From a virus: a stretch of DNA of 64,000 nt. The position numbers were made by a program, and so were the translations under genes. This document shows positions 21,026 through 36,286 of this stretch, one piece after another (within the stretch, counting starts at the first letter, position 1; each line of letters starts with the position of its first letter). The DNA is taken from IMG/VR virus record IMGVR_UViG_3300005253_000946; one strand, written 5' to 3'. Below the pieces are notes generated by a model. The model saw only the letters and a list, made by a program, of their open reading frames with translations. It was not told where the DNA came from and made no database searches.

Positions 21026-21101
21026 TGGTGACCCAGGTGGGATTCGAACCCACAACTAAATCTGTTAGAAGGACCTACTCTACCAGTTGAGTTACCGGGT
21101 C
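21026..21101 (-). tRNA. tRNA with CUA in canonical register (putative amber suppressor)
   Basis: 76-nt cloverleaf GACCCGG...GGTCC-TTCTAAC-AGATT...GTGGGTTCGAATCCCAC-CTGGGTC-ACCA; the anticodon stem is weak. Confidence 0.7.
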
Positions 21102-21730
21102 TTGTCTATTTTTATTTTATTAAAGACGGTCCATCTATTGCCTCTACAAAATGTGGGAAGTTGTGCATCACAGTTAGGGCACACTATTCTAAGGTTTATC
21201 CTCCGGTTGTCTGCACTATCTCCATTAATGTGATCAAGACGTAAGGTAAGAGGTTTGCCTTTCCATTTAGGACCTAATTTACAGATAGCACATTCCTCGT
21301 CTATTAGCTTTTCGCGTAGCAATCTTTTTCGTAATTTAGAAGAAGCAATAGGTGGACCATCTTTAATAAGATAATACTCGATTGGACGTCCTTTTCCATT
21401 AAAACAGTTTTTGCCAAAAGGATTAAAATGAGACGTGTCAAGTTCTAAGGCTTTTATACGTCTACCTACACTTTTATAATTAGCTCCCCGTGGATCTAGA
21501 CCCAAACCTCTTAAAACATCAGCCACAGATTTACTTTCAGGAACTAACTCTTTAAGTTTGTTATCACTCCAAGATCTCTGTGACCATTTAGAGGATAAGC
21601 TATATTTTCTCATCCAATAACGAATGGAAGTAGCGCTTTTTCCTGTTTTAGCTGCTATCTGTCTTATAGATAATTTCTCGTCTATTAGGTTTTCAAGGAG
21701 GTGTTTCTGCATCCTTAACTTGTAGCTCAT
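21092..21730 (-). CDS. HNH homing endonuclease with N-terminal HTH
   Basis: CAIC...LRLDHINGDSADNRRINLRIVCPNCD; stop codon lies inside the tRNA 5' end. Confidence 0.9.
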   Translation of the reverse strand: MSYKLRMQKHLLENLIDEKLSIRQIAAKTGKSATSIRYWMRKYSLSSKWSQRSWSDNKLKELVPESKSVADVLRGLGLDPRGANYKSVGRRIKALELDTSHFNPFGKNCFNGKGRPIEYYLIKDGPPIASSKLRKRLLREKLIDEECAICKLGPKWKGKPLTLRLDHINGDSADNRRINLRIVCPNCDAQLPTFCRGNRWTVFNKIKIDKTR

Positions 21731-21767
21731 TTGTACAGGTTAAGTCAAGCGAAACACCTCCCATATA

Positions 21768-21785
21768 CAACTGAGCTACTGAGCC
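21768..21785 (-). pseudogene. tRNA 5' fragment (acceptor strand plus half of the D arm)
   Basis: GGCTCAG-TA-GCTC-AGTTG; its acceptor strand pairs fully with the 3' strand CTGGGTC of the downstream tRNA. Confidence 0.6.
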
Positions 21786-22489
21786 ATTGTCTCTATCTCT
21801 TCGAGAATTCGTACATCCTCAACCTCCCTGATCTCTTTAGCTATCTGTTCCGCTGAAATTTCTCCAACAGCTTCTGCTGAGAGAGAGACTTCTACATCAT
21901 ATTGGACACAGGGGTCTGTATCCCAACCTTTTGGTGTAGGAGATGTAGGGATATTGAAGATCACTGCGTCTGCTAACCAAGGCTTATTAAGTTTCTTAGC
22001 TACATCAGCAGATTCAGCCCTAAGAGCATTCTTGATAGCTGTTGAAGAGATCTTGTTGTCGATAGCTGTCTTAGGCTCTATCTCGGACATTGCACGCCCG
22101 CGTAGGAGGCATTGAACTACATGAATAGCTCTAAACCTATCTCTTTGGCTGTCTTTGTCATTTAAGTTGCTTACCATGCTGCTCCAGTTGGAGTGTTTGG
22201 TATTAAGCTCAAATGCACGTTGAGACTCTTTATAGTTGGTTTTGACCTCTCGAATTGATTTTACGAGGGTGGCTTTAGATACGCCGCATTCAGCAGCGAT
22301 TAGGTTTCTTACTTGGTTGCTAAGATTCATAGAATCCTCCGTTGGTTAAGTGGTTGTTAATTTGGAACTTTTTTTGGTTAAGTTCATAACCAACGGAGGA
22401 TCGCGTGAAGATGTAGTAATCTACGTCATGGCGTTAATATAACCTTTCTTGGTTAGAGTTACAAGGGGGTAATTGTATCTACAAACGGG

Positions 22490-22810
22490 CTACGTTTTAT
22501 CTTGTTCTTTATTCCAAATCATCATTACGAAGTTGGCTACGTCTACCATATCCCCACTATCTAGATGTTTGACTAACATCTCTTTTAGGTCTGATATTTC
22601 ACAGTCTTCCATAAACCAGCCACCACGACCTTCGTCACGTTTCTCGGCAAGCTTTTCGATCATAGCCTTACCTAGGTCTTTTACCCCTTCTTCGTCGTAT
22701 ATACGATTTAGAATATCTCGCAGATCAAGTTCGTATTCAGGATAAAGGGTTCTAGAAATATTCAGTGATTGATGTATTAAACCTTTTAATTCTTCAGATA
22801 CTTTGCTCAT
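22490..22810 (-). CDS. MazG-like helical NTP pyrophosphatase candidate
   Basis: LKEMLVKHLDSGDMVDVANFVMM. Confidence 0.4.
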   Translation of the reverse strand: MSKVSEELKGLIHQSLNISRTLYPEYELDLRDILNRIYDEEGVKDLGKAMIEKLAEKRDEGRGGWFMEDCEISDLKEMLVKHLDSGDMVDVANFVMMIWNKEQDKT

Positions 22811-22832
22811 CTATACTCCTCTTATAATTGTA

Positions 22833-22919
22833 TGGTGCCGGGGACGGGAGTTGAACCCGCACGCAGTTTATTACTCTGGATTTTAAGTCCAGTGTGTCTA
22901 CCAATTCCACCACCCCGGC
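22833..22919 (-). tRNA. tRNA-Leu(UAA)
   Basis: CTGGA-CTTAAAA-TCCAG, long variable arm, encoded CCA. Confidence 0.95.
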
Positions 22920-24631
22920 TAAGAACCCATGTAGAAGGTGTAGACCTTAACATTTGATTCAACAGATAGGAAGTAGGCTAGTAACCATTCATCTTTAAGC
23001 TGTGGAACTTTTGTAATAGGTCTGTCTTCTATTTCACCTATACCTTCCAGAAATACATGATGCTTGTCTTGCACAACTTCTATCATCTTATCGGTTTCAT
23101 CCAGTACATGGCTCCATGTCGGGTTTTCGAGAAGTGGACCTATATAAGTTGACCCATGTTCGCCCCAGTAGATGTCTTTAAACTGTACAAAGACTACTCT
23201 ACCTTCTACAGCTACATCTCTCTTTTTATGACCATCACATTCTATACAGGAGTCAATTACGTATTTTCGTTGCCTACTCATGTATCAAGCTCCGATTGTT
23301 TTAGACTAAACTTTTCTGTGCCAGTCCATAGGTTTAACTGCATCGCTCCCTTACCATTATATGCTAATTTTTCTCCTGATTTCTTTACACCCTTTTGTTG
23401 CGCGAAGCTGGAATTAGCGTACTTATAGGAGCTAGGTGGTGTAGGATGTTTAGGCGTACCTTTTATTTTGACCTTACTATTGCCATCTGGAAAGACTTCG
23501 ATAGTGTAGGTCATTATAGGTTTATCCTTATCCGGCAACGCAATAGGAAGACGGTCTGTAACATCCCAAGCTATTACGTTCATACCTGTAATAGAGCATA
23601 TCTTCTTACCCGCTTCCTGAACTACTCCAAGGTTACGAAGCTCTGATAAACGTTTATGACCACTATTTGTTTTGTGTATATCGTTTATCTCTCTACCGGT
23701 AAGAGGTCCATTCATATACAAAAGGTGGTAGACTTTCCATCTGGTCCAACTTAGTAGTCCATTTTCTTTAATCTTTTTCCAAGCATCTTTACTGGATTGT
23801 CTGACTCTTTTACCCACTAGTTTCCTCCTTTATTTTTTCTCTAGGGACCCATACTACTACGTTACCTTTGTATGTATGGTCATTATTGTTCCCTATAATA
23901 GGGAGTGTGAAATGGTTTTTTTCTTTGTGATTGAACACGGTACATCGCCGTTCCTCGTCGACCCAACCTCTAGGATCACCACCACACCAATATTTTATCG
24001 CATCATTGAAGGGGTTAGTAGACCCTTCTGGGTACATTGCGATAGTAAATTCGTATTCCTCTAATAACAGATCCAGATTAGTCCAGAGAGTGTCCCAGGT
24101 TATTCCGTATTCTGCGTCTAGGTGTTTAGCGATCATAGCTATGGTTCGTTTAGCTATGTCTTTAGTAATATAAATATGGTGATTGTCTGCTACTTCGTAA
24201 ACGTCATCTACATCCCAAGTGTCATCGACGAATGAGTCGTGGTTTTGTATTTCGATCTTCCAATTAGTTACTTCTGCAGGGCTATCTCCTGTTAGAAGAC
24301 CATCACCTATCGCACGGTCTACCATAGATAGTAATCTGGCTTTTAGATTTTCTTCCCGTACACCATTTAATTCATAAGTTACGTCTAGTTGCATTCTTAG
24401 TTTTGTCATAGTTTATCTCCAGGGATTATTGTGAGTGTTCAAGAGCCGACACCACCCTAGAAGTGATGCCGACTCTCTACAGGTCCATAGGTTGTGGTTC
24501 TGATTGTAGGCTTCCTGTACAGCCCAAAGTCTCCTACGAATAGCATTCAGTCCAGCCGATGAATTTTCCCCTGTACCTTTCTCAGGAATAGTTCTCGACA
24601 ATCACCGCTATGGCATATAGGAGATTTTTTG

Positions 24632-24707
24632 TGGATCAGGAGGAAGGAATTGAACCTTCAACCACCAGAGCCAAATTCTGGTGCTCTACCAATTGAGCTA
24701 CTCCTGA
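24632..24707 (-). tRNA. tRNA-Gln(UUG)
   Basis: U1-A72, CCAGA-ATTTGGC-TCTGG, encoded CCA. Confidence 0.9.
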
Positions 24708-25137
24708 TTGGATAAAGGTTTTGTGCTTGTTTCCAATGCAGCTTTTTATGGCAATTGGAGCACAACACGACACATTTTCGAATTTCTTCTTCTATCTTCT
24801 TAATTGACTTCAGGTTATGTACTGCATGGCTGATATTAAATTCCTTCTTACTTGCGTCTGTATGATGAAAATCGAGACATGCTGGGTGACTTTCTCTACA
24901 TTTAATACACTTTACTCCATCCTTATATTTGAGAAACCATTCTCGGTGCTTTTTAGCTAAACGCTGTCTTTTATTTTTGTAGTACTGTGGGTTGTTCCGG
25001 TAATGCTCCTTAAGATTGAGAGCATTACAGGGCCGACAGTAAGACGCATACTTAGGAGCACCAGTCGCAAGCTGGCCTCTAATATTAAAGTGTTTAACAT
25101 CTTTTTCTTTCTGGCACCGAACACAGAGCTTCTTCAT
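24658..25137 (-). CDS. HNH endonuclease (probable start MKKLCVRC at 25137)
   Basis: CVRC...CRPC...CIKC...LDFHH...CVVLCSNCHKKLH; reads about 50 nt into tRNA-Gln. Confidence 0.9.
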   Translation of the reverse strand: MKKLCVRCQKEKDVKHFNIRGQLATGAPKYASYCRPCNALNLKEHYRNNPQYYKNKRQRLAKKHREWFLKYKDGVKCIKCRESHPACLDFHHTDASKKEFNISHAVHNLKSIKKIEEEIRKCVVLCSNCHKKLHWKQAQNLYPIRSSSIGRAPEFGSGG

Positions 25138-25194
25138 ATAGACCCCGAATAAAAATTTCCTCAACCCTACTAAGTTTTGGTATATGTGTCAAGA

Positions 25195-25230
25195 TCAAAT
25201 CCCGTTGTCTTACCCTTAGACCACTCCTGA
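25195..25230 (-). pseudogene. 5' half of a tRNA-Gln(UUG), truncated just after the anticodon
   Basis: TCAGGAG-TG-GTCT-AAGGGTA-AGAC-A-ACGGG-ATTTGA, followed directly by TCTTGACA. Confidence 0.85.
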
Positions 25231-25272
25231 TCAGAATTTTACCCTCTCAACCCTTATAACATTTTTAAAGGC

Positions 25273-25309
25273 AAAAAAGAGGGGCCAGAGTTGGGGGACT
25301 CTGGCCCCT
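25273..25309 (-). terminator. intrinsic terminator
   Basis: minus strand AGGGGCCAGAGT-CCCCCA-ACTCTGGCCCCT-CTTTTTT. Confidence 0.75.
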
Positions 25310-25661
25310 ACACTCACAGATGGGGAGAGACTCTAAGAGCCTCTCCGAGGAGGAGGGACTTATAGTATAGACCTTTTAATAAGGTCTCGTCAAAAACTAC
25401 TAACCAGATCCATTCCTATATCGCTACCTCTAGACCCTTTACAGGAATTGCATCGACAATTAGAATTTCTAGGCCACCTAGCCCAACCAGTTTCAAATGG
25501 CTCTTTGCATTGGGCACATAGCTTAACAACTGTGCCTGTTTCAAATATACAAAGAGGTTTTGCTTCTTTGGCTCTTTCCTTGTCTTTGTCGTAAGTGATT
25601 GTACCTACTACCAGGTTTTTGTTTCGTTTCCCCATTAGTATCCTTATATTGAAAAATTGTA

Positions 25662-25739
25662 TGGAGCCGAATCTCGGATTCGAACCGAGGACCTGAAGTT
25701 TACAAAACTCCTGCTCTAGCCAAGCTGAGCTAATCCGGC
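25662..25739 (-). tRNA. tRNA-Thr(UGU)
   Basis: GGAGT-TTTGTAA-ACTTC, encoded CCA. Confidence 0.95.
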
Positions 25740-25752
25740 GTAATAAGTCTTT

Positions 25753-25836
25753 TGGCTCCGGGAGCCGGGGTCGAACCAGCATAGGATTTCTCCACGAGTT
25801 AACAGCCCGCTGCATTCCCTATTATGCTATCCCGGA
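25753..25836 (-). tRNA. tRNA-Asn(GUU) with an extended variable arm
   Basis: GCGGG-CTGTTAA-CTCGT; variable region GGAGAAATCCTAT. Confidence 0.9.
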
Positions 25837-25949
25837 TTTATGTATATTTACAACCTCTATCATTGAGCTACTCTGGTTTAACCCGGCTCTAAGGGTAAGG
25901 TAATTAATGCAGAACATCAACTATCTTAGTTAACCCCCTTAGAGCCTTG

Positions 25950-26158
25950 AGAATCGGGATCGGAAAGCTCCCTTACCAGCTCACATCGAAATCCTTTTAA
26001 ACGAGCCAACGCAATTTTTGCTTTGATGGTACTGTTCAGTCTTACCAACCAATACAGCCCTATAAGCTCTTAAGTGGTCTGCCACTGCCCTACCTAGTTC
26101 AAGAGTAGAGAAGGAAGCTTCATACAGCCTTTCGGCAATTTCGACTCTGGACGATTCT
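25950..26158 (-). ncRNA. putative structured ncRNA (unknown family)
   Basis: closing helix AGAATCG/CGATTCT, GCC-GAAA-GGC GNRA hairpin; no long ORF. Confidence 0.45.
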
Positions 26159-26205
26159 GTGCTTTTATTCTATATTCCGGAATAAGGAATATTTATTAGT
26201 TAAAC

Positions 26206-26399
26206 CCACAGGTGCTCGGACGTAACTCCGATGTGAGGTATCCCCCGTTTGCTGGTGTCACCCGGTTATGTCTGACTCGGGTCACCTTTCACCAACGGCC
26301 TAAGCTTTGTAGTATGGTTTTTCACCGCTGACTCGACCTAGTACCACCCGTATTATTCGGGCTATGGGCGTGCATATACTTCACGCCATACACCTGTGG
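26206..26399 (-). ncRNA. putative multibranch ncRNA (unknown family)
   Basis: 9-bp closing helix CCACAGGTG/CACCTGTGG enclosing at least four hairpins. Confidence 0.55.
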
Positions 26400-26421
26400 T
26401 AATCATACTAGGTATGATTGC

Positions 26422-26497
26422 TGGGCCGCCCTATGAGAATTGAACTCACATACCTGGCTCCACAAACCAGTGTCTTAGCCGTTAGACGAAGGGCGGC
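26422..26497 (-). tRNA. tRNA-His(GUG)
   Basis: CTGGT-TTGTGGA-GCCAG; encoded G-1:C73 and CCA. Confidence 0.93.
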
Positions 26498-26509
26498 GAT
26501 GTTGTGACT

Positions 26510-27025
26510 TTACCAGTTTTCTCTGGTTTTTAGTGCGTGGCACCAGACACATCTTACCTCAAGATTCTCTACATTATTGTTATTTCTGTCTCTATCTTTA
26601 TGATGAACATCTAACATTTTTTCTTTGACTTCATCAAAAGGACAGTCTGAGTTACTACATTTTTTACCATACTCTTTGAATGCCCTCGTTCTGTAAATAT
26701 ATTGGCCGTGTTTTAAGTTTCTTCCACCACTCTCTTGATTGTTTATTGTAATAGCACAGCTCTGAGAACAGTACACCCTTCCACTTTTACTGTTACGTAG
26801 TCTCTTTTTGGTAACCTCAATAGGTTTCTCACAGTTATTACATTTAGTGGAAATAAGTCCATGCCCGTGTTTGATGCTATAGTAAGTTCCACTACAGCTC
26901 TGGCTACAAAAAGCTAATGGACGTTTTTTAAGTCGTCTCCGTTCTTTCCATACAACTGTGCTACACTGTGCACAGTTCTTCTTAACTCTCCAAACCCCTT
27001 TTATCTTTTTCTCTTGAATATGCAT
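26510..27025 (-). CDS. HNH homing endonuclease with Zn-ribbon repeats
   Basis: FCSQSC and YCSQSC repeats; LDVHHKDRDRNNNNVENLEVRCVWCH. Confidence 0.9.
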   Translation of the reverse strand: MHIQEKKIKGVWRVKKNCAQCSTVVWKERRRLKKRPLAFCSQSCSGTYYSIKHGHGLISTKCNNCEKPIEVTKKRLRNSKSGRVYCSQSCAITINNQESGGRNLKHGQYIYRTRAFKEYGKKCSNSDCPFDEVKEKMLDVHHKDRDRNNNNVENLEVRCVWCHALKTRENW

Positions 27026-27031
27026 TGACTA

Positions 27032-27060
27032 ATGGTAAGCTAGGCTGGATTGGATGTCAA
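27032..27060 (-). promoter_or_regulatory. sigma70-type promoter of the HNH gene (leaderless)
   Basis: TTGACA-N17-TACCAT, 6 nt before the ATG, no SD. Confidence 0.75.
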
Positions 27061-27061
27061 A

Positions 27062-27098
27062 CCACAAACCGGCGCATTACCAATCTGCCACGGACGAC
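27062..27098 (-). pseudogene. 5' half of a tRNA-His(GUG), truncated just after the anticodon
   Basis: G-TCGTCCG-TG-GCAGATTGGTAATGC-G-CCGGT-TTGTGG, followed by TTTGACA. Confidence 0.8.
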
Positions 27099-27115
27099 TT
27101 AGTTAAAATTGCAAG

Positions 27116-27263
27116 GCATATTCGATAACCGGCTTTCCACCTATTCTAGAATAAGCTTCTATGTTTTCAGACATCCCGGCTGAGATGATTAAAGCTAGCC
27201 ACCATCTCACTTCTTGACCTGTCTTCCATACTATCGAATATGCATCAGGAACCTCACGGTTCC
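27116..27263 (-). ncRNA. putative structured ncRNA (unknown family)
   Basis: perfect 12-bp helix GCATATTCGATA/TATCGAATATGC; GGAACC-GTGA-GGTTCC GNRA hairpin. Confidence 0.5.
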
Positions 27264-27409
27264 CGAAATATGATTGCATCTCGGAGCGTACCGGAATGTT
27301 ATAAACTTTCCGTTTCCTTGACGGGGCAACTACTAGTCTAGCACACCGTTTAATATGGCTGCCGCCACAACGGTCACTAGCGACTCATCGCCCTACTTAT
27401 ATAAGGTCT

Positions 27410-27485
27410 TGGTCGGGATAGTAGGATTTGAACCTACGTCTCCGCGTCCCAAACGCGGTGCTAAGCCGGATTCAGCTATACCCCG
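27410..27485 (-). tRNA. tRNA-Pro(UGG)
   Basis: CCGCG-TTTGGGA-CGCGG, encoded CCA. Confidence 0.95.
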
Positions 27486-27500
27486 TAGCTGTGGATACTA

Positions 27501-27989
27501 CTACGCTGTTTTCTTTTTTTCAATAGGAGCTATCCAGGGTAAGATACCGTCAAAAGGTACTTTCTCTCCAAATAGTTTTTCGTATAACTCTACAGCCGGT
27601 CTCCACTCTTCTACGGTACCGTCGTCATTGTCACTAAACTCAACAACTGGAAAATACTTTTTCAGACGTATTAGCGCAGTCGTAACTACTATGTCGTAGG
27701 GATATTTACCAGTCTTACAGTAATCGTGATACAGACCAGATTTTTCATCTTTAGAGTCCATCCATATGACCGGATCAATATTCTGCTCTACACCGAAAGT
27801 CTCAAGACCATCGTCTAATTTTCCATTTATCCAAACATAGGTGTTGGTTAGTTCTGGATCGCCAGTACCGCACCCGCCCGCAATAGGTACTCCAGCCGTG
27901 TCGACTATCTTTTGCACGTCTTCAGACCACGCTGTGAATAAGTCTTGTTCTAGAACTAGTGGTCTGTACCAATAGTGCGTATAACCCAA
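27501..27989 (-). CDS. conserved phage hypothetical protein
   Basis: MGYTHYW...CKTGKYPYD motif pattern. Confidence 0.6.
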   Translation of the reverse strand: MGYTHYWYRPLVLEQDLFTAWSEDVQKIVDTAGVPIAGGCGTGDPELTNTYVWINGKLDDGLETFGVEQNIDPVIWMDSKDEKSGLYHDYCKTGKYPYDIVVTTALIRLKKYFPVVEFSDNDDGTVEEWRPAVELYEKLFGEKVPFDGILPWIAPIEKKKTA

Positions 27990-28852
27990 AAGTATCCTCC
28001 TGTGTGTTTAGTTAGGTTTGCAACCACCTTTTTTGGTGTGGTTGGTAATAGCTGCTATGAGACTCTCGATGTTAGGTTCAGTAGGTCTGGGTCCGCCTAT
28101 ATTAAGAGACAGATTATCGCCTTCCATTATATTCTTGAAGTCTTTTATAGGGCACTCATCAGCTTTGAAACAATTATCGCAATCAGGGAAGCCTTTACTA
28201 TCTCCTTCCATGATACTCATTTCTACCTTGATAACTCTGTTTGACTTGTCGAAGTCTCTCATTAGAGTTAGAAGGAATGCTTCTAAGTTTGAGCCTGGTT
28301 TGAATGCGGCGTCAAACCTTTTTTCTAACGCTCCAAGACTACCTATAATTGTAGATAAAGATTTATCACTAAATTCACCAGCTACTGACGAAGCTAAGTG
28401 TATAATGTCACTAAGAGCGCGTGCCTGCCCCCGTGTGATACTGTAGTACATCTCATCGTCGTTTTTTTTATCTTCCATGTGGTTGCTCTTCCTTATCTAT
28501 AGGGAATCCTATTTTTTTGGTTTCAGTACACTCTTCGTCTGAGCATTTGTACTCTTCTACCCCATCGTCTATAGATTCGAGGATCATAACACTACCACAG
28601 TCACACCATGTTTTGGTATACCCCATGAGAAGTTCCTTAATAGTAAAAAGTTAATGTAGATAAGCTAAGGGGTGTTTACCCCCTGTTTTAATACCACTGA
28701 CTAGGCAGCTTTTCATCTGCTTTATCAGTAGTCCTGCCCGACAGTATCGCGTCGACTTTTACTCATGTTAGTCTCCTAGTAAAGAGTTGTGGTTTTTGCC
28801 TTCATAAATCTTATGACACAAACCTACCGGTTATTTCACTAAGAGAAGTGCT

Positions 28853-28928
28853 TGGTGGATCCTCCCAGATTTGAACTGGAAACCCACGCATTATGAGTGC
28901 GGCGCTCTACCAATTGAGCTAAGGATCC
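28853..28928 (-). tRNA. tRNA(CAU), Ile2 or elongator Met
   Basis: CGCA-CTCATAA-TGCG, G1-C72. Confidence 0.9.
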
Positions 28929-29357
28929 ACATAAGAGTTAATTATTCTCATACCTAGTTTTAAGGGTTTCTACGACATATTTAGGTAAGAAGTCAGGAGC
29001 GCCATCACGGATGTCATAGTACCCTAGTAATCGGTCACTACAACTACCTCTAGTCGTTAGATGATGGTGTAACGCCCAAGCACGTTTCGCTCTCCAACCA
29101 GCTATAAGTCTGCCTTTACTTTTACTGAAGTTGTCGTTGGGGTGGACTACCGCTATACCTACATAAGCTTTGTATCCAGCTATTACAGCAGCTACTGTTA
29201 CTTTTCTTGTATCAACTCTAGTTAGGTCTAATTGTTCTCCAGCCATTTCTGTGTGGAAGAATATAGGACTAAGTTTCAGTACTTCTTTGTCATTCGGCCA
29301 TTCTTGTATACTTTTTTGTTTCGACATGATTATCTCCGTTTTTGTTTATAGATTGCT

Positions 29358-29432
29358 TGGTGGGTCCACAGCGATTTGAACGCTGACAATTAGCTTAAAA
29401 GGCTAAGATGCTACCAATTACATCATGGACCC
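29358..29432 (-). tRNA. tRNA-Lys(UUU)
   Basis: TTAGC-CTTTTAA-GCTAA. Confidence 0.93.
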
Positions 29433-29462
29433 GTGAACATTTCTGGAGTGTCTAAATACCAA

Positions 29463-29538
29463 TGGTAGCACGGACTGGACTTGAACCAGCAACCTTCCCC
29501 GTATGAGAGGGATGTTCCACCATTTGAACTACCGTGCC
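29463..29538 (-). tRNA. tRNA-Met(CAU), probably elongator
   Basis: TCCCT-CTCATAC-GGGGA; 1-72 paired. Confidence 0.9.
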
Positions 29539-30607
29539 TTAGCCACTAATATCAGTTGGACCAATTATACGTTTCGCAAGATCTTCACTTTCCAAATAAA
29601 ACTCGTCTTTCCAGTATACTGTTTCAGTCTCTATTGCAGGTAACTGAGGATTAATTTTAACTGAAGTCTCGTATACGAAACCGAAGTTACGCAATATTTG
29701 CCCAAACCTCAAGTCGGGGTTTTTATCTACGAGTTCACTTAACATCTTGGCCAGTAGTTTATTTGCTTCTTGCCTTTTCATATTATAACTTTAACTCCTA
29801 TTTCTCCTTGTAGACGGTTTGTCATGTCCTCATTAGATTCTATTCCAAGGTGGAGATAGTCGCACATTTCAGAGTAGACTCCAAAAGCTTTGTCTCTAGT
29901 TTCTGATTCTGGATGGCGATAGGCTATAACTTCAAATGTGTGCATTAGGTGTCCGTAGTAATGAACAGGTAACATGTCAATAGCCTGCTGGTTGCTTTTA
30001 CCTATATCTTTGATGGATTGGAATTCTGTGTTGATCAAAAAGGATGAAGGTATTTTTTCTGCTGGTTGAAGCATTATACTACGTATCCAACGAACCATCA
30101 TCTTAATTTCTTCAGTGCTAGCGTTGTCTGGTCCACGTAGCCCAGTTATTAGAGTCGCTTGCTCCTTGCGAGGTAAATTCATTACCCAATCTTGTAAAAC
30201 ACTATCCATTAATGATCTCCTTTTCTCTCTTTTTTGTTTTAGATTTAGTGGTAGATCTTCGCCTGTACATATTCCTACCTTTTTCGTCCTTACGGTCGGC
30301 CACTACTAAAATGCCGTCTGCTACAAGAACATCCAACCAGAAAGCTACAGCTCCTGTTTCTTCATCCAAGTAGTCTCCGTATATATGACCCTTTTTGTCC
30401 CATACACCTTGTTCTCTTAAATATTTGGCCCGTTTTCGTACTTGCCATTCAGTAGTACCTAAAAACTTCGCTATAGGTTTACACCAAGGACCTACCTCAC
30501 AGATAGCTATGAGAAGTATTAAAGCAGTAAGCATGTCTTCATCTTTAAGACAAGGGTCTATTTTACGTAAGTTTCTCTCATAAAACTTCCTGGTTCTAGG
30601 TCTACCT

Positions 30608-30904
30608 CTAGTCTCGGATGTGTTCAATTATTCCCTCCGAATCAGGTTTGCCCCATTTACGTTTTTTGTTTATCTCAAGCTTCTTTTTAGCCTCTTCCAG
30701 TAAATCGTAGCCCACTAGGTCTGAATGTCTGAGTAGGAGTATAAGTATGTCTGCTGCTTCTACAGGGTCTAGTGGATGCTCTAATAACTCCTCAGCTTCT
30801 TTGTGTATATGTTTAACGACAGGTACGATCCGTTCTTTACCTCCACCAAAAGTCTCTCTTGCCCAGTGGATAGCGTGTATTGCAAATTCTGCGTATTTCT
30901 CCAT
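30608..30904 (-). CDS. DUF550/MazG-like dNTP pyrophosphohydrolase
   Basis: KHIHKEAEEL...EAADILILL...KKLEINKKRKW. Confidence 0.75.
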   Translation of the reverse strand: MEKYAEFAIHAIHWARETFGGGKERIVPVVKHIHKEAEELLEHPLDPVEAADILILLLRHSDLVGYDLLEEAKKKLEINKKRKWGKPDSEGIIEHIRD

Positions 30905-31049
30905 AGAAAAGCTCCTTTTAAAATTTCAGACCCACCCATCTAGCGGTGGGGCTAGACAGGTGGGCCTATAGGTGTATCGACTTACAGGCAGGGGATACTT
31001 CCTGGCGATACGTTTATATCTTACCTAACTTTTGGTTAGGAAGATAGTT

Positions 31050-31135
31050 TGGTGCCGGAGGCGAGAATCGAACTCGCACACCCGAAGGCACGAGGTCCTA
31101 AACCTCGCGTGTCTGCCTAGTTCCACCACTCCGGC
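31050..31135 (-). tRNA. tRNA-Leu(UAG)
   Basis: CGAGG-TTTAGGA-CCTCG, long variable arm. Confidence 0.95.
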
Positions 31136-31137
31136 TT

Positions 31138-31214
31138 TGGTGACTCCAACGGGATTTGAACCCATGTTGCCAGGGCGAAAACCTGGTGTCCTAACCAAGC
31201 TAGACGATGGAGTC
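31138..31214 (-). tRNA. tRNA-Glu(UUC)
   Basis: CCAGG-TTTTCGC-CCTGG. Confidence 0.93.
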
Positions 31215-31252
31215 TATGTATCTCTTATAACATAAAGAGTAGCTAAATTAAA

Positions 31253-31333
31253 TGGCGGTGACGATGGGATTTGAACCCACATAAACCTCCTTGACAGGGA
31301 GGTACTTTACCTAGTCTTTTAAGCTACGTCACC
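31253..31333 (-). tRNA. tRNA-Asp(GUC) with an enlarged D loop
   Basis: CCTCC-CTGTCAA-GGAGG, G73. Confidence 0.9.
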
Positions 31334-31334
31334 G

Positions 31335-31410
31335 TGGTAGGACTGGTCAGGCTTGAACTGACGACTTTCTGCGTGTAAGGCAGATGCTCTCTCTACTGAG
31401 CTACGGCCCC
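31335..31410 (-). tRNA. tRNA-Val(UAC)
   Basis: TCTGC-CTTACAC-GCAGA. Confidence 0.93.
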
Positions 31411-31445
31411 GAAGAGATAATAAACTAACTGTACAAATATTTCAA

Positions 31446-31521
31446 TGGCGGGAAGTAGAGGACTCGAACCCCTGACTCAAGATTTGGAGTCTTGTGTGTT
31501 ACCAGTTACAACCAACGACCC
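31446..31521 (-). tRNA. tRNA-Trp(CCA) with two acceptor-stem mismatches
   Basis: CAAGA-CTCCAAA-TCTTG; GGGTCGT/ACTTCCC. Confidence 0.8.
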
Positions 31522-31522
31522 T

Positions 31523-31599
31523 TGGAGTCGGCGGACGGAATCGAACCGTCGATGATCGGTTTTGCAGACCGACGCTTTAACCAACTTAGCTACGCCGAC
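31523..31599 (-). tRNA. tRNA-Cys(GCA)
   Basis: TCGGT-CTGCAAA-ACCGA, U73. Confidence 0.93.
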
Positions 31600-31624
31600 A
31601 CTATAAGATTCGAGTATAATTGCG

Positions 31625-31716
31625 TGGCGGAAGGAGTGGGACTCGAACCCACAAGCCGACTTACGCCGACCACCTGATTAGCAGTCAGGCTCAATAGCCA
31701 GTTCTGACACCCTTCC
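31625..31716 (-). tRNA. tRNA-Ser(GCU)
   Basis: CCTGA-CTGCTAA-TCAGG, long variable arm, G73. Confidence 0.95.
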
Positions 31717-31744
31717 TATAATTGCTGGTAGCTGGAATGGGGCC

Positions 31745-32101
31745 TTACTCTACTTTCTTTTCCCATAAAGTTTTATGTGTTCTTATCCGATGACAATTAG
31801 CACATCTAATTTCACACTTTTCAATCTCAGCCCTTATCCTATTCATAGACACACATCTCTTTACAAGATTTGAAACAGAGTCTTCTTTCTCCCCGCGAAC
31901 ATGGTCAAAATCAAGAGCACGGATATCTGAAAAGCCGCAGTCCACACAAGGATGCTGTGACAAATAGTCTGCGATAAACTTCTTGCGAAGAGCGAACTGC
32001 TTTCGTTTAGATAACCGTGATCTCTCTTTATATATTTCTTTGTTAGCTTCGTAATGTTGTTTTGCCGCTTGCTTCTGCTTCTCTTTGTCTTTATAGGCCA
32101 T
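31745..32101 (-). CDS. HNH endonuclease
   Basis: CVDC...LDFDHVRGEK...CEIRCANCHRIR; upstream TTGACA-N17-TAAGCT-N6-ATG. Confidence 0.88.
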   Translation of the reverse strand: MAYKDKEKQKQAAKQHYEANKEIYKERSRLSKRKQFALRKKFIADYLSQHPCVDCGFSDIRALDFDHVRGEKEDSVSNLVKRCVSMNRIRAEIEKCEIRCANCHRIRTHKTLWEKKVE

Positions 32102-32138
32102 ACCGACAGCTTATGGGGTTCAAATATCTTTGTCAAGA

Positions 32139-32178
32139 TATGAGACCTACGCTGGAACCAACTCCAGTCTATCCCGCG
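32139..32178 (-). pseudogene. 5' half of an initiator-like tRNA(CAU); 3' remnant at 31726-31744
   Basis: CGCGGGA-TAGA-CTGGA-GTTGGT-TCCAG-CG-TAGGT-CTCATA, then TCTTGACA; after the HNH gene comes GGCCCCAT-TCCAGCT-ACCA. Confidence 0.7.
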
Positions 32179-32912
32179 TCTATACGTACGTAAGGTTCGC
32201 ACACAGCTAATACTTCTTCAACCTTAAATAAATCTAATCTATCATCTGTTCGTACACCAGTCTCCATATCTATCCAACCTATACCTGCTGGAGATTGTTC
32301 GAAAGCCTCTAAAATATCTGATATATTCTCTGGTGTTATTCCTCCAGCCCATCCACAATAGTGTCCAGTAATAGGTATAGGGAGTCCTTTTTCTAAAACC
32401 GATACTCCTCTACCACCACTACTGTCAAATAGAACATGGTGTCGGATATTTAAAGCTGCTGTCTTTTTCCACAGGTCTACAGTATTACTCTTATGCTGAG
32501 TGATGATATCTATCTTCCGGTTACGCATTACATCTACCCACCATGCGAATCCGGTCAGATCGTCAGGATACTTTTGAACATTTATCTGTATCCGAGAAAA
32601 TACTTCTCCCATGTAATCAGGATTGAAGCCAAAATACTTTAGCCACTGAGGGGCTGAAATTTCCTCACCTTCAACAAAAGCTTTAGCCACTGAGCCGCAA
32701 ATATGTAAAGCCAGATTTATCTTATTCTCTAACTGATAAGCCCATTTTCCTAATTCACCAATCCAATTGCTTGAAGGATACCTGTCACGTCCTTGTTTAG
32801 TGCTTATTAAAATACCCCACTCTACGAATGGGTATTTTTTAGAAAGAGCGTACATATCGGCAGAAGATACGTGATCGTCAACTCCTGTAATAGTTACTCG
32901 ATTTAGTTTCAT
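32169..32912 (-). CDS. TrpF/phosphoribosylanthranilate isomerase-like TIM-barrel protein
   Basis: VTITG, LFDSSGGRG, GWAGGITPENI, WIDMETGVR. Confidence 0.75.
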   Translation of the reverse strand: MKLNRVTITGVDDHVSSADMYALSKKYPFVEWGILISTKQGRDRYPSSNWIGELGKWAYQLENKINLALHICGSVAKAFVEGEEISAPQWLKYFGFNPDYMGEVFSRIQINVQKYPDDLTGFAWWVDVMRNRKIDIITQHKSNTVDLWKKTAALNIRHHVLFDSSGGRGVSVLEKGLPIPITGHYCGWAGGITPENISDILEAFEQSPAGIGWIDMETGVRTDDRLDLFKVEEVLAVCEPYVRIDAG

Positions 32913-33094
32913 TTTTTGTCCTTCAGGATCGTATCTGGATAGTCTATAAAAATAAATTCCTGATCATCTGGTAGTGTAGGTATTGAATGTAGAGATCTGG
33001 GTTGAATAGCAGTTACAACAGTTACATTATACTTTTTTACTAGTTCACGTAACTCCTGGAAAACTTCAGCTTGTTTTTTATATGACATTTTGTA

Positions 33095-33391
33095 CTATCC
33101 CGCATTCACATCTATTGAAGCTATAGCCCATATTGCTGTTAGAGCTACATCTGCTAACTCGTGTTTTACTTTTTCTTCGTCATTAGAGTGGACTGCTTTA
33201 ACTAATTCGTATATTTCCTCTATTAAGATTCCCAGTGCTTCGTGTTTGTTAATAAAAGCTCCACGACCATGTTTCATCTTAGCTTTATGGAGAATCTCAT
33301 TTACAAACCTTTCTGCATCACCTTGGTCTTCGTAAGTAATATGTTTTCTTAGTTCTCCCGGTTCTTGATTCATTTTATCGTTCCGATCCAA
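33095..33391 (-). CDS. MazG-like nucleotide pyrophosphohydrolase
   Basis: HEALGILIEEIYEL...KHELADVA. Confidence 0.75.
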   Translation of the reverse strand: MDRNDKMNQEPGELRKHITYEDQGDAERFVNEILHKAKMKHGRGAFINKHEALGILIEEIYELVKAVHSNDEEKVKHELADVALTAIWAIASIDVNAG

Positions 33392-33605
33392 ATTGTATGT
33401 TTAAGAGATTATGTAATGTTTTTGCTTCTAGGGTACTCATCATCACTTGCCCACAAACATGCGTATAACTGGTGTCCTCTATAAAGGTTCCATTCTCCAT
33501 CTTAAAGTCGATACATATACCTGGTTGATTGTCACTAGGAATATTGGCTATTCCTATATTGTCAACTGCCTTGAGTGTAATCACTTTGTATTTCCTTAAA
33601 ATTGC

Positions 33606-33683
33606 TGGTCCACTAGATTGGATTTGAACCAATGACCGCTCGGTTATCAGCCGAGTGCTCGAACCAGACTGAGCTTCTAGTGG
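33606..33683 (-). tRNA. tRNA-Ile(GAU)
   Basis: CTCGG-CTGATAA-CCGAG. Confidence 0.93.
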
Positions 33684-33697
33684 TTATATAATTGTGG

Positions 33698-33859
33698 TTA
33701 TTTTACTTTAAATTTGGAAGTTACTTCTGCTCTCTCAACAGTTGCTGGATTAAAACATTCAGGACACATAACGACACCATCTCGTTCGGCCTGCTTTATG
33801 TCTACCTCAAATTTATGTCCGTTTATACACTTAGCCTGCATTGTTACTTTCTGATTCAT
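33698..33859 (-). CDS. 53-aa Zn-ribbon protein (not in the ORF track)
   Basis: AAGGAG RBS; MNQKVTMQAKCINGH...CPECF...KFKVK. Confidence 0.7.
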   Translation of the reverse strand: MNQKVTMQAKCINGHKFEVDIKQAERDGVVMCPECFNPATVERAEVTSKFKVK

Positions 33860-34470
33860 TTTCACTCCTTCGGAATTAGCTTCTAGTGGCCGTGAAATAA
33901 TATTATCATGGAATTGTTATCTATTCCATGCTTGTAGGCTATCTTACTGAAGGCCTCTTCATCATAGGCTAGAGCTTTACCGTCTGCTTCCCGTTCCTTG
34001 TTGGTGGTGATCATACCTTGTATCTCTGCAAAAGCTTCTACGCTTGCGGCGACTACATAGGCTGCTTTCTGTTCATCTGTCATAATGTTCTCCTTAAATG
34101 AATGCTGGGCGTTCCTTCGAGTGTTCTAAAACAATGCATCACGCGGTCCGGTACTGTGTGTGTAATCAAGACTCGAAAGCCTTGTTAGCACTACCACAGA
34201 AGGTGACCGATGTAATAGGATATACCCTTGTTTGGGGTCTGGTACTTCCTTCTCAGTGATCCAACGAAATGCTATCTGGATGCCCCGGTTCTCTGTAATT
34301 AACGCTACCTCTTCAGCAGTATTTAGGTCGATGAAGCAGTCATCGGGAACGTCAGCAGATGTGAAATTCCTAGCTAACTGTTCCTCCCCTACTATGTCTA
34401 AGGTCAGCGAACCGTAATGATTGTTGTACTGTGTTGTATTTTCCACTTTAATTCTCCTTTAAGTATTGCT

Positions 34471-35305
34471 TGGTGCCCTAGGAGGGATTTGTTAGGTGTT
34501 TTTCTTTTTTCTTTATGATATAAAGGTAACATGAAGACGTATAAAATTCGACAATTTATAGAAAATCCTAAATTGCTATCTCAATTTAAATCCAGGGAAG
34601 TTGTTCCTATGCTTTGTGAGTATTGTAGAAAAGATGCTTCAGCTAGAAAGAATAGAGTACAGTCGAAGATTAACCATGGATTTAAGAATCGTTTCTGCTC
34701 TTCATCTTGTTCTATAAAATATCAAGTAGTAAGTAAGGGATTAGAATTAACCAAAGAGTATTATTGTGTTAAGTGTAAGAAAGTGTTTAAGAGAATCTTT
34801 TCACAGAGTATCAGATCAAAAAACTGCTTCTGCTCAAAATCGTGTGCGGCAAAGTATAATAATGCTCATAAGTCTTACGGCATTCGTAGATCTAAGTTGG
34901 AAATTTGGTTAGAGCGACGTCTTGTTGAACTATATCCTGATTTAGAGATTCTCTTTAATTATAAGAAAATTATTGAATCTGAACTTGATATTTATATCCC
35001 TTCTCTAAATCTAGCTTTTGAGATAAATGGTATTTTTCATTATAAACCTATCTTTGGTCAAGAAAAGTTAGAGCAGATCCAAACTAATGATTCTAAGAAG
35101 AGTAGTCGATGTACTCAAGAAAATATATCTTTACTTATTATTAACTGTTCAAAACTTACGCACTTTAAGGTAAAGGAGTTTTACAAGTATTTAGGGATTA
35201 TCGAATACCATATAAATATCTTAGTAGATCTATTTGGTAGTCAAGATAGTCCCCGACATGTGGCTTCGTAATCATATGCTACTATCCGGGCTGAGCTACT
35301 AGGGC
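34471..35305 (-). pseudogene. tRNA-Arg(ACG) split by a 759-bp insertion (5' part 35251-35305, 3' part 34471-34491)
   Basis: GCCCTAG...TTACGAA...GTCGGGG, then insert, then CAAATCCCTC-CTAGGGC-ACCA; the acceptor strands are perfectly complementary. Confidence 0.85.
34531..35271 (+). CDS. Vsr/DUF559-like (PD-(D/E)xK) homing endonuclease with Zn-ribbons
   Basis: CEYC, FCSSSC, CVKC, FCSKSC; SKLE...ELDIYIPSLNLAFEINGIFHY. Confidence 0.85.
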   Translation: MKTYKIRQFIENPKLLSQFKSREVVPMLCEYCRKDASARKNRVQSKINHGFKNRFCSSSCSIKYQVVSKGLELTKEYYCVKCKKVFKRIFSQSIRSKNCFCSKSCAAKYNNAHKSYGIRRSKLEIWLERRLVELYPDLEILFNYKKIIESELDIYIPSLNLAFEINGIFHYKPIFGQEKLEQIQTNDSKKSSRCTQENISLLIINCSKLTHFKVKEFYKYLGIIEYHINILVDLFGSQDSPRHVAS

Positions 35306-35752
35306 GTTATTGTTTAAGGAAAGATACAGTAGCACGGAATCCATTTGTCGCTGGATTCACACTTATATTCTTCGACTGCTTCAGTATCTGTACTACTTAG
35401 AAATTCTCTACAATACTCCGTAGTACAAAAACCTTCTCCAAGAAATTCTTCAGGGACAGCATGGAAGCCGTTTCCTTCTGGATCTATGGACATTATAACT
35501 TCTTTGTCTTGATCCAGTTCTTGTAGTTGCTTTATAAATTCGCTTAATTTCATAGTGTTCTCCTATAATTGTTCTGCCTACTACCCTGACGAACCGCTGC
35601 TCTGTAGGCATAATTCTTCAAGGTAATCAATAAGGGCTATACCGTCGGAATAGTCGGCTTCTCCTTTAAATAGCTTGCTAACATAGTCAGCTGCGGCTGC
35701 CTTAGCCTTTTTCTCTTGTTCTGTCATGTTCCTGTTTCCTTTGTATAATTGC

Positions 35753-35849
35753 TGGCGGAAGGAGTGGGATTCGAACCCTACACGGCTTTTACACCTAACG
35801 GTTTTCAAAACCGCATCCGGTAACCAGCAATCTTTCGGATTATCCTTCC
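35753..35849 (-). tRNA. tRNA-Ser(UGA) with an enlarged D arm
   Basis: GCGGT-TTTGAAA-ACCGT; 97 nt; G73. Confidence 0.85.
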
Positions 35850-36118
35850 GCTGTTATATTAAACTGCTGCTTGAAGTGTTTCTAATGAATTAAAAGGCCC
35901 TACCCAAGGAGTTTTTTTGTCCTGAATCATTTCAAAGGTTGCCACCATTGCGTCTATGTCTGGCAGGCTTTTAAAATCTTTGTCGACTTTTACATAATAC
36001 CACCCGTTAGGGAATCGGTGAGCTTCATAGTCAGGTCCATGAAATCCTTCTTGGCAATGTATAGGGTTAGGTATTATAGGCTTCTCTGTTTGCATGTTAG
36101 TCTCCTTTAAGATTGCAG

Positions 36119-36205
36119 TGGTGGGTCAGGTTGGATTCGAACCAACGTAGGCCGAAGCCACCGGGTTTACAGCCCGGTCCTTTTGACACACTCAGGCACT
36201 GACCC
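36119..36205 (-). tRNA. tRNA-Tyr(GUA)
   Basis: CCGGG-CTGTAAA-CCCGG, long variable arm. Confidence 0.95.
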
Positions 36206-36209
36206 ACTG

Positions 36210-36286
36210 TGGTGGTCGAGACCGGAATTGAACCAGTGACACCTAGATTTTCAGTCTAGTGCTACTACCAACTGAGCTACTCGACC
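36210..36286 (-). tRNA. tRNA-Phe(GAA)
   Basis: CTAGA-CTGAAAA-TCTAG. Confidence 0.93.

Follow-up and report, generated by a model that had tools for sequence, protein, structure and literature searches.

Nuclease genes and broken tRNA genes in the array

The 64,000-nucleotide (nt) stretch of viral DNA analysed here (IMG/VR record IMGVR_UViG_3300005253_000946; hereafter the window) is part of a 174,885-bp genome with 41% GC from a marine sediment metagenome assembly, that of a large phage using the standard code. About 21 tRNA genes occupy positions 21026-36286 on its minus strand, and five open reading frames (ORFs) for endonucleases lie in this array: N1-N4 on the minus strand, all matching HNH families of PHROGs, and N5 on the plus strand. 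No further members of the N1-N5 families were found across the 174,885-bp genome. A preliminary description of the window had proposed that all five genes adjoin or interrupt tRNA sequence, and locating the ORFs and fragments bore this out (Table 1). Ahead of each gene on the tRNA strand lies a truncated tRNA 5′ part, called a scar below, and then TTGAC(A/T), which abuts the Gln, His and initiator-like methionine (fMet-like) fragments and begins 19 nt beyond the fragment of N1 and 6 nt beyond that of Arg. Since this motif occurs only 25 times on that strand of the 64 kb, its presence at all five fragments is not due to chance.

Table 1. Features of the five nuclease loci (positions in the window)
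Feature	Position	Strand	Remarks
N1 tRNA 5′ fragment, 18 nt (21785-21768), with repeat arm	21764..21785	-	acceptor strand and D arm
N1 promoter	21713..21748	-	TTGACT, 18-nt spacer, TACAAG, ATG 6 nt on
N1, helix-turn-helix and HNH endonuclease, 206 amino acids (aa) from leaderless start	21092..21712	-	ORF overlaps tRNA by 10 nt
tRNA with CUA anticodon, complete	21026..21101	-	amber-suppressor-like; weak anticodon stem
tRNA-Gln(UUG) 5′ scar	25193..25230	-	positions 1 to ~39; abuts TTGACA
N2 promoter	25164..25192	-	TTGACA, 17 nt, TAGGGT; has leader
N2, HNH endonuclease, 159 aa	24658..25137	-	PHROG 2255; ORF extends 50 nt into tRNA-Gln
tRNA-Gln(UUG), complete, putative replacement	24632..24707	-	D arm and anticodon stem unlike scar
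tRNA-His(GUG) 5′ scar with G-1	27061..27098	-	abuts TTGACA
N3 promoter, leaderless	27026..27060	-	TTGACA, 17 nt, TACCAT, ATG 6 nt on
N3, zinc-finger and HNH endonuclease, 171 aa	26510..27025	-	PHROG 1271
tRNA-His(GUG), complete, putative replacement	26422..26497	-	
Initiator-like tRNA-Met(CAU) 5′ scar	32137..32178	-	abuts TTGACA
N4 promoter, leaderless	32102..32136	-	TTGACA, 17 nt, TAAGCT
N4, HNH endonuclease, 118 aa	31745..32101	-	PHROG 2255; replacement tRNA absent
Putative fMet-like tRNA 3′ remnant, 16 nt	31726..31741	-	T-stem 3′ arm, acceptor strand, CCA
tRNA-Arg(ACG) 5′ part to T stem	35251..35305	-	anticodon stem decayed; 6 nt before TTGACT
N5, zinc-finger and Vsr/PD-(D/E)XK-like endonuclease, 246 aa	34531..35271	+	antisense to array
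N5 candidate -10 box (probable)	34519	+	6 nt upstream of ATG
tRNA-Arg(ACG) 3′ remnant, 21 nt	34471..34491	-	T loop through CCA

The full layout, that is a 5′ scar, a sigma70-type promoter, an HNH gene and a complete tRNA with the same anticodon, is found at Gln (N2) and His (N3), and the cassette is complete in two to three of the five cases. A complete tRNA does follow the nuclease in three, as had been described: the CUA tRNA after N1, Gln(UUG) after N2 and His(GUG) after N3, the latter two of the same isotype as the scars. The Gln scar and the new Gln gene have a 9-nt direct repeat in common, and the acceptor strand of the His scar pairs with the 3′ strand of the replacement at 6/7 positions. 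The N1 fragment overlaps the stop codon of the upstream ORF. Relative to this fragment the D arm of the CUA tRNA is recoded, with a compensatory D-stem pair, and this tRNA is the probable cargo of N1. It occurs in a phage using TAG as a normal stop codon (recoding of TAG was considered and rejected, as TAG terminates 24/131 long ORFs), and its anticodon stem, with two G-U pairs and a mismatch, looks as if its halves derived from different alleles.

The other two loci are splits without replacement. Beyond N4 lies an unrelated tRNA-Ser(GCU), and the 16-nt segment before it, judged by its sequence, would be the 3′ remnant of the fMet-like tRNA. It pairs with the scar at 5/7 positions, including the C1 mismatch of initiators, while positions 40-60 are missing. 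On the other side a PRAI-like (TrpF fold) gene at 32169-32912 (minus strand) lies within the array, its stop codon overlapping the fMet scar. At Arg(ACG) the acceptor strand of the remnant pairs with the 5′ part at 7/7 positions. The TTGAC beside N5 is not its promoter, because N5 is antisense to that strand. The predicted model of N5 (predicted local distance difference test score, pLDDT, 89) gave weak matches to Vsr-type folds (1cw0, 1vsr, 3r3p; E 0.017-0.18). Its invariant residues are E151, D153, E164, N166 and H170, with the family motif ExNGxxH, not EDxHD; the alignment of the N2/N4 family shows invariant His/Asn/Cys columns. Thus, the view that the window holds five instances of one cassette had to be given up: two have no replacement, and one is antisense and not HNH.

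It had also been stated that in three cases (Gln, His, CAU) the cut falls 1-2 nt past the anticodon. The breaks at these three do lie in the anticodon arm, but TTGACA begins 3-4 nt past the last anticodon base, leaving 2-3 tRNA-like bases. Only these three of the five (N2, N3, N4) are broken there; N1 is associated with a break in the D loop and N5 with one in the T arm, so that breakpoints span position 11 to the T loop and no general rule of breakage at the anticodon exists. Being recombination junctions, these breakpoints do not have to coincide with sites of cleavage. In a genome-wide search with a half-tRNA profile, intact tRNAs excluded, the His, Arg and Gln scars were three of the top four matches, with scores of 14-18 overlapping the best shuffled scores (~15); therefore position and anticodon match carry the evidence for scars. 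The fMet and N1 fragments were absent from the top 15 matches, and Rfam did not detect the Gln scar by itself.

Since acceptor strands still pair across N4 and N5, the halves might be functional, either as parts of tRNAs with introns or as split tRNAs joined after transcription. Hardly any credence can be given to this idea: no group I or II intron match was found in 19-38 kb, the fMet-like tRNA lacks its central part and the anticodon stem of Arg is decayed. In-silico joins evaluated by ARAGORN rebuilt no tRNA at N4 and gave one join only, with a score of 87.6, at N5, neither result being credible. Joins of a scar with a downstream tRNA score well in ARAGORN even with a mismatched anticodon stem, and such scores therefore show acceptor complementarity only. 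A tRNA group I intron with a homing endonuclease was likewise rejected, as there is no ribozyme match and the exons do not rejoin to a full tRNA.

Filled and empty sites in cultured phages

Homologs of N1, N2 and N4 are present in tRNA arrays of cultured phages, and among close relatives carrying them the nuclease gene is present at a given site in some genomes and absent in others. Streptomyces phages of the genus Karimacvirus, ~99% identical in the compared region, were the most informative, with SaltySpitoon as the empty reference lacking the inserts. In JimJam, KentuckyRacer, TomSawyer and PumpkinSpice all nine distinct tRNA-adjacent HNH insertions (9/9) alter the neighbouring tRNA and keep its anticodon; 8/9 of the enzymes are homologous to N1, N2 or N4. 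The altered genes are those of Pro (anticodon stem recoded, or the whole gene replaced), Ile, Leu, Phe, Gly, Lys, Arg(ACG) and Arg(CCU). As a control, differences of at least 3 nt from the empty allele were counted in these genomes and registered in 13/19 adjacent tRNAs versus 5/152 others; for unique alleles the proportions were 8/14 and 3/46 (p=1.4e-4). One insertion at a protein gene, KentuckyRacer gp110, was excluded from these counts.

Displaced parts may stay in place. At the Phe site the T arm is newly supplied by the element, and the displaced T arm and acceptor strand persist unaltered downstream of the HNH gene. At the Arg(CCU) site the promoter comes after a 14-nt 5′ scar, and the end of the ORF overlaps a tRNA-like gene that lacks a D arm, keeps the anticodon and is completed by the resident T arm. 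The Pro-HNH-Pro and Leu-HNH-Leu arrangements of JimJam could be taken for duplications; this was rejected, as the empty site has both tRNAs and the second one is re-sequenced.

The same relation was found in other hosts. Enterococcus phage Ben has an intact long-arm Leu(UAG), while in EFDG1 the 5′ part of the Ben allele is broken in the anticodon loop and followed by an N1 homolog and then by a new, short-armed Leu(UAG), which uses the same T arm and acceptor as the resident gene, with an 11-nt direct repeat; phage Bop carries the new Leu(UAG) allele alone. Felixounavirus EcSzw_1, compared with SME50, retains 11 nt of the SME50 allele as a scar and has a cargo similar to that of EFDG1. A Pro half, TTGACT, an HNH gene and a new Pro follow one another in an unrelated viral contig (L107). 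In EFDG1, EFGrKN, EcSzw_1 and JimJam gp171 the scar matches the 5′ end of the allele at the empty site without any difference. Thus, the proposal that the nuclease arrives with a re-sequenced tRNA of the same anticodon and leaves the old part as a scar was supported by the filled and empty homologs (9/9 in Streptomyces phages, EFDG1/Ben and EcSzw_1/SME50). The empty-site comparison suggested as a check succeeded for homologs, where an intact copy of the displaced or scar-type allele occupies the empty site, but no empty-site relative of this phage itself was found.

Two side observations were made in these genomes. Unannotated tRNA-like genes that lack a D arm and have a long variable region (Arg CCU, Ile GAU and Arg UCU) occur in Streptomyces and Felixounavirus phages, at ~24830-24910 of locus L007 (JimJam record 92830), ~2180-2258 of L015 and ~3180-3265 of L002; one of them serves a nuclease as cargo, and HNH genes replace or split the other two. 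In KentuckyRacer the HNH gene gp110 (L016, 1650-2160) has entered the tRNA nucleotidyltransferase gene at its start; the former 5′ end survives as a stump and the insert apparently provides a new start, that is the same trick at a protein gene.

Promoters, inverted repeats and nuclease families

The promoter that each element was suggested to bring, often without a leader, is indeed leaderless at N1, N3 and N4; N2 has a leader, and the TTGAC at N5 lies on the other strand. The strict pattern TTGAC(A/T)-17-TAnnnT occurs nine times in 175 kb, three of them at N2, N3 and N4, and of five leaderless promoter patterns in the genome three belong to N1, N3 and N4. A general promoter scan revealed no excess (49 versus 40.7 in shuffles), and only the strict pattern is informative.

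Ahead of N1 an inverted repeat with a 14/16 match joins the tRNA fragment (left arm, 21779-21764) to the promoter (right arm, 21737-21722). It is the strongest such repeat among the 146 TTGAC(A/T) sites of the genome, scoring above the 141 others with which it was compared, and its D-arm motif is recoded in the CUA tRNA, with a compensatory pair. One can therefore ask whether some scars are element-borne operator DNA, i.e. captured target halves kept for autorepression, rather than remains of a resident tRNA of this phage. For N1 this is compatible with replacement of a resident gene, and JimJam also has tRNA-like arms absent from the empty site. As a general explanation it is quite improbable, given the identity of the four scars listed above with empty-site alleles and the Gln, His and fMet scars, which are without a significant partner arm.

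An inverted T-loop motif, similar to the one at gp125 of phage EGole, lies in the spacer of the N4 promoter. In the N2 family strong inverted repeats precede 43% of starts versus 9% of shuffles. Promoters of this HNH family hold inverted repeats of the anticodon loop of the neighbouring tRNA, which is the new finding here: loop bases 33-37 of the downstream tRNA were found on both strands in 7/27 loci (permuted mean 1.5, p=0.0006) and those of the upstream tRNA in 8/23 (permuted mean 1.85, p<0.0002), both p values being optimistic as the loci are partly related, which tells against our interpretation. By likeness to I-TevI these repeats are probably autorepression operators, which would suggest that many family members recognise the anticodon arm in an isotype-specific manner. 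Such isotype-matched repeats lend indirect support to the proposed targeting of the anticodon loop.

Among 67 distinct loci of the N2 family 53 lie at most 200 nt from a tRNA, 47 of them sharing its strand, and at 23 loci the ORF and the downstream tRNA overlap; the cargo comprises 18 anticodon types. The long 5′ scar, presented earlier as part of the layout, turned out to be optional: 2/33 loci passed a strict test (permuted mean 0.4) and about four were recognised by eye. The N5 family, ~2,500 clusters unnamed in Pfam and NCBIfam, is nearly always antisense to phage tRNA genes: 52 of 71 loci are near a tRNA, 50/52 of them antisense to it. A test for 3′ scars was passed by 8/39 loci (permuted mean 1.9, maximum 8), and about six of these eight have clear T-loop 3′ scars matching an intact tRNA on the other side. 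N5 is therefore assigned to a T-arm-inserting, 3′-replacing family, its substitute end being absent or decayed here. Several genomes among its loci (L131-L210) hold two or three copies. The N3 family is tied less to tRNAs: arrays hold 2/3 of the homologs checked. One N3 homolog (L009, 3870-4010) shows another order: Pro 5′ scar, complete Pro(UGG), HNH gene, Arg(UCU).

The diversity of cargo, the wide variation of breakpoints and the occurrence of replacement alleles in nuclease-free genomes may also be explained by nucleases that cut generic tRNA motifs or move passively, the adjacent tRNA differing because a block has recombined from a distant phage and not because it is specifically resistant. 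There is an example of such a nuclease: SegB of T4 and T6 is a free-standing GIY-YIG homing endonuclease in a tRNA cluster, and the available parts of its descriptions state that it binds a universal T-loop motif and cuts genes of many isotypes, including T4's own identical ones (PMC2330249, PMC13096335). Against a hitch-hiking mosaic of this kind speak the anticodon kept in 9/9 Streptomyces replacements with changed stems, promoter repeats that match the neighbour's anticodon loop beyond permutation and ORFs that often terminate within the cargo tRNA; we consider it unlikely, although deserving attention.

Some other features of the array were registered. Ser(UGA) at 35757-35851 and Trp(CCA) at 31446-31521, both on the minus strand, are missed by default ARAGORN and recovered with relaxed thresholds or Rfam. 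An orphan tRNA 5′ fragment (25854-25876, minus strand; acceptor strand and D arm) without a nuclease lies 18 nt upstream of tRNA-Asn and is possibly the scar of a lost sixth element. The minus-strand segment 26206-26399 is a ~195-nt GC-richer multibranch structure with no ORF, a fold energy of -76.8 kcal/mol and no credible Rfam match.

Proposed route of spread and known systems

Based on these data we suggest, with a probability of about 0.72, that free-standing homing endonuclease genes specialised on tRNA genes spread by cut-and-replace. In a mixed infection the nuclease would cut the tRNA gene of a given isotype in a phage lacking it, as the family and the behaviour of SegB imply. Repair would copy in the nuclease gene together with the fused tRNA piece, crossing over in conserved tRNA motifs. 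The incoming piece would restore a complete tRNA of the same anticodon with changed D-arm, anticodon-stem or T-arm sequence, the displaced part being deleted or left as a scar. For the homologs this allele replacement and the origin of scars are demonstrated by the filled and empty pairs; for Gln, His and CUA in this phage they are suggested by analogy. The changed sequence would remove the recognition site and make the carrier immune. The element has its own sigma70-type promoter, usually leaderless, over which lies an inverted repeat of the target motif; by binding this repeat the enzyme may repress itself, as the I-TevI case suggests. Where cargo is absent or decayed (fMet, Arg ACG), the tRNA gene would simply be lost and the host would supply the tRNA. 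Cleavage, resistance of the cargo, biased inheritance, autorepression and the origin of this phage's scars from resident genes are what we infer.

Several observations weigh against this reading. Two of the five loci have no replacement tRNA, and plain destruction is also seen in cultured phages, where T4-like Ozark loses Gln and SME50 has a split Arg, as at N4 and N5. Replacement-type alleles without a nuclease exist in Bop, wV8, KentuckyRacer (Gly) and TomSawyer and PumpkinSpice (Lys), and therefore the direction of events is not proven. Within the window only the inverted repeat of N1 is significant, those at N2, N3, N4 and N5 being not. As no empty-site relative of this phage was found, the origin of its scars rests on analogy: a search of viral contigs via the flanking PRAI-like protein and N1 gave no relatives, scar sequence patterns had no match in viral and metagenome contigs, blastn of the fMet and His scars gave chance-level matches only, and an exact-protein look-up returned only the same genome (marine sediment run SRR1555744).

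A further step, which we regard as tentative and slightly less probable than its opposite, would be to see the HNH and Vsr-like families as isotype-specific cleave-and-rescue drives for tRNA genes, each reading a particular anticodon, D or T arm in DNA, carrying a resistant tRNA of the same isotype fused to its own frame and displaying its target in an inverted-repeat operator. The main force might instead be benefit to the phage, if allele turnover shields tRNAs from host anticodon nucleases. Loop changes do let phage tRNAs evade such nucleases according to the available part of PMC10264068, and tRNA loci with an anti-defence role are amplified by SegB (PMC13096335). However, two of the insertions in this phage destroy tRNAs, and changes fall mainly in stems while loops are almost unchanged (Gln, His), which makes benefit as the main force very improbable.

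Cut-and-replace spread gives a selfish-element explanation for mosaic phage tRNA arrays with half-genes and allele swaps that keep anticodons, and is relevant to the unsettled question of why tRNAs are carried and diversified by phages. If drives of the kind outlined exist, they would rank among the chief causes of tRNA allele turnover in different phage lineages and host phyla, with targets predictable from sequence; should the operator repeats reveal the target, predicted recognition sites would become available for hundreds of small nucleases (118-250 aa). Cut-and-replace spread is directly testable in cultured phages differing by one insertion, such as JimJam versus SaltySpitoon or EFDG1 versus Ben and Bop. 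For annotation it is a warning that standard finders miss tRNA fragments and D-armless tRNAs beside HNH genes.

Integrase-driven islands and prophages restore the 3′ end of a tRNA gene on insertion. Insertion into a tRNA gene, its restoration and a displaced fragment are common to them and the elements described here, which differ in having no integrase or attachment (att) core, a size of 0.45-0.8 kb and a diverged cargo that can be a 5′ half; the inserts contain the nuclease ORF only, and their longest direct repeat is 9 nt. They are free-standing, being separate ORFs with their own promoter motifs and no intron family match.

No account of nuclease cassettes that replace tRNA genes emerged from literature searches, which did not cover the possible partial precedent of Pope et al. 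2014 (PMC3958112). For mycobacteriophages, PMC6409571, citing that paper, records HNH genes in tRNA clusters as an association only; like those described here these genes lie within tRNA arrays and are proposed to spread or diversify tRNA genes. SegB is also a free-standing nuclease in a phage tRNA array, with tRNA genes as DNA targets and co-inherited flanking tRNAs. Unlike SegB, the present enzymes are HNH or Vsr-like (no GIY-YIG domain was matched in N1-N5 in Pfam, PHROGs or NCBIfam), lie inside or abut their target and have an isotype-matched substitute tRNA, whereas the available parts of the SegB accounts describe no re-sequenced cargo tRNA or scar (PMC2330249, PMC13096335). With I-TevI, which represses itself at a homing-site-like operator (PMC2988022), they have in common a target-like sequence overlapping the nuclease promoter. 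I-TevI is intron-encoded with a single operator, while here an inverted repeat of a tRNA loop lies around or beside the -35 box as a putative operator. N5 has the Vsr-like catalytic fold in common with EDxHD homing endonucleases such as I-Bth0305I (PMC3239194, PMC2677866), the matches being weak; its family differs in being free-standing, almost always antisense to tRNA genes and marked by the ExNGxxH motif.

A parallel, which speaks against the earlier view of a strategy without precedent, is in fungal mitochondria, where mobile endonuclease ORFs form gene hybrids in Allomyces atp6 and Glomus atp6, atp9, cox2 and nad3 (PMC3630166). There, as here, a foreign gene end is supplied and the native end is stranded beside the nuclease gene. 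The diverged substitute with a stranded native part was found in the homologs, and the layout matches at Gln, His and probably CUA, not at fMet and Arg(ACG). The fungal enzymes are LAGLIDADG or GIY-YIG proteins replacing 3′ ends of mitochondrial protein genes, whereas the present elements target phage tRNA genes, replace either their 5′ or their 3′ part and come with a sigma70 promoter. The proposed spread thus resembles homing of the SegB type combined with the fungal replacement of gene ends. To this parallel the present work adds the filled and empty sites of cultured phages as proof of replacement and the operator clue to target specificity.

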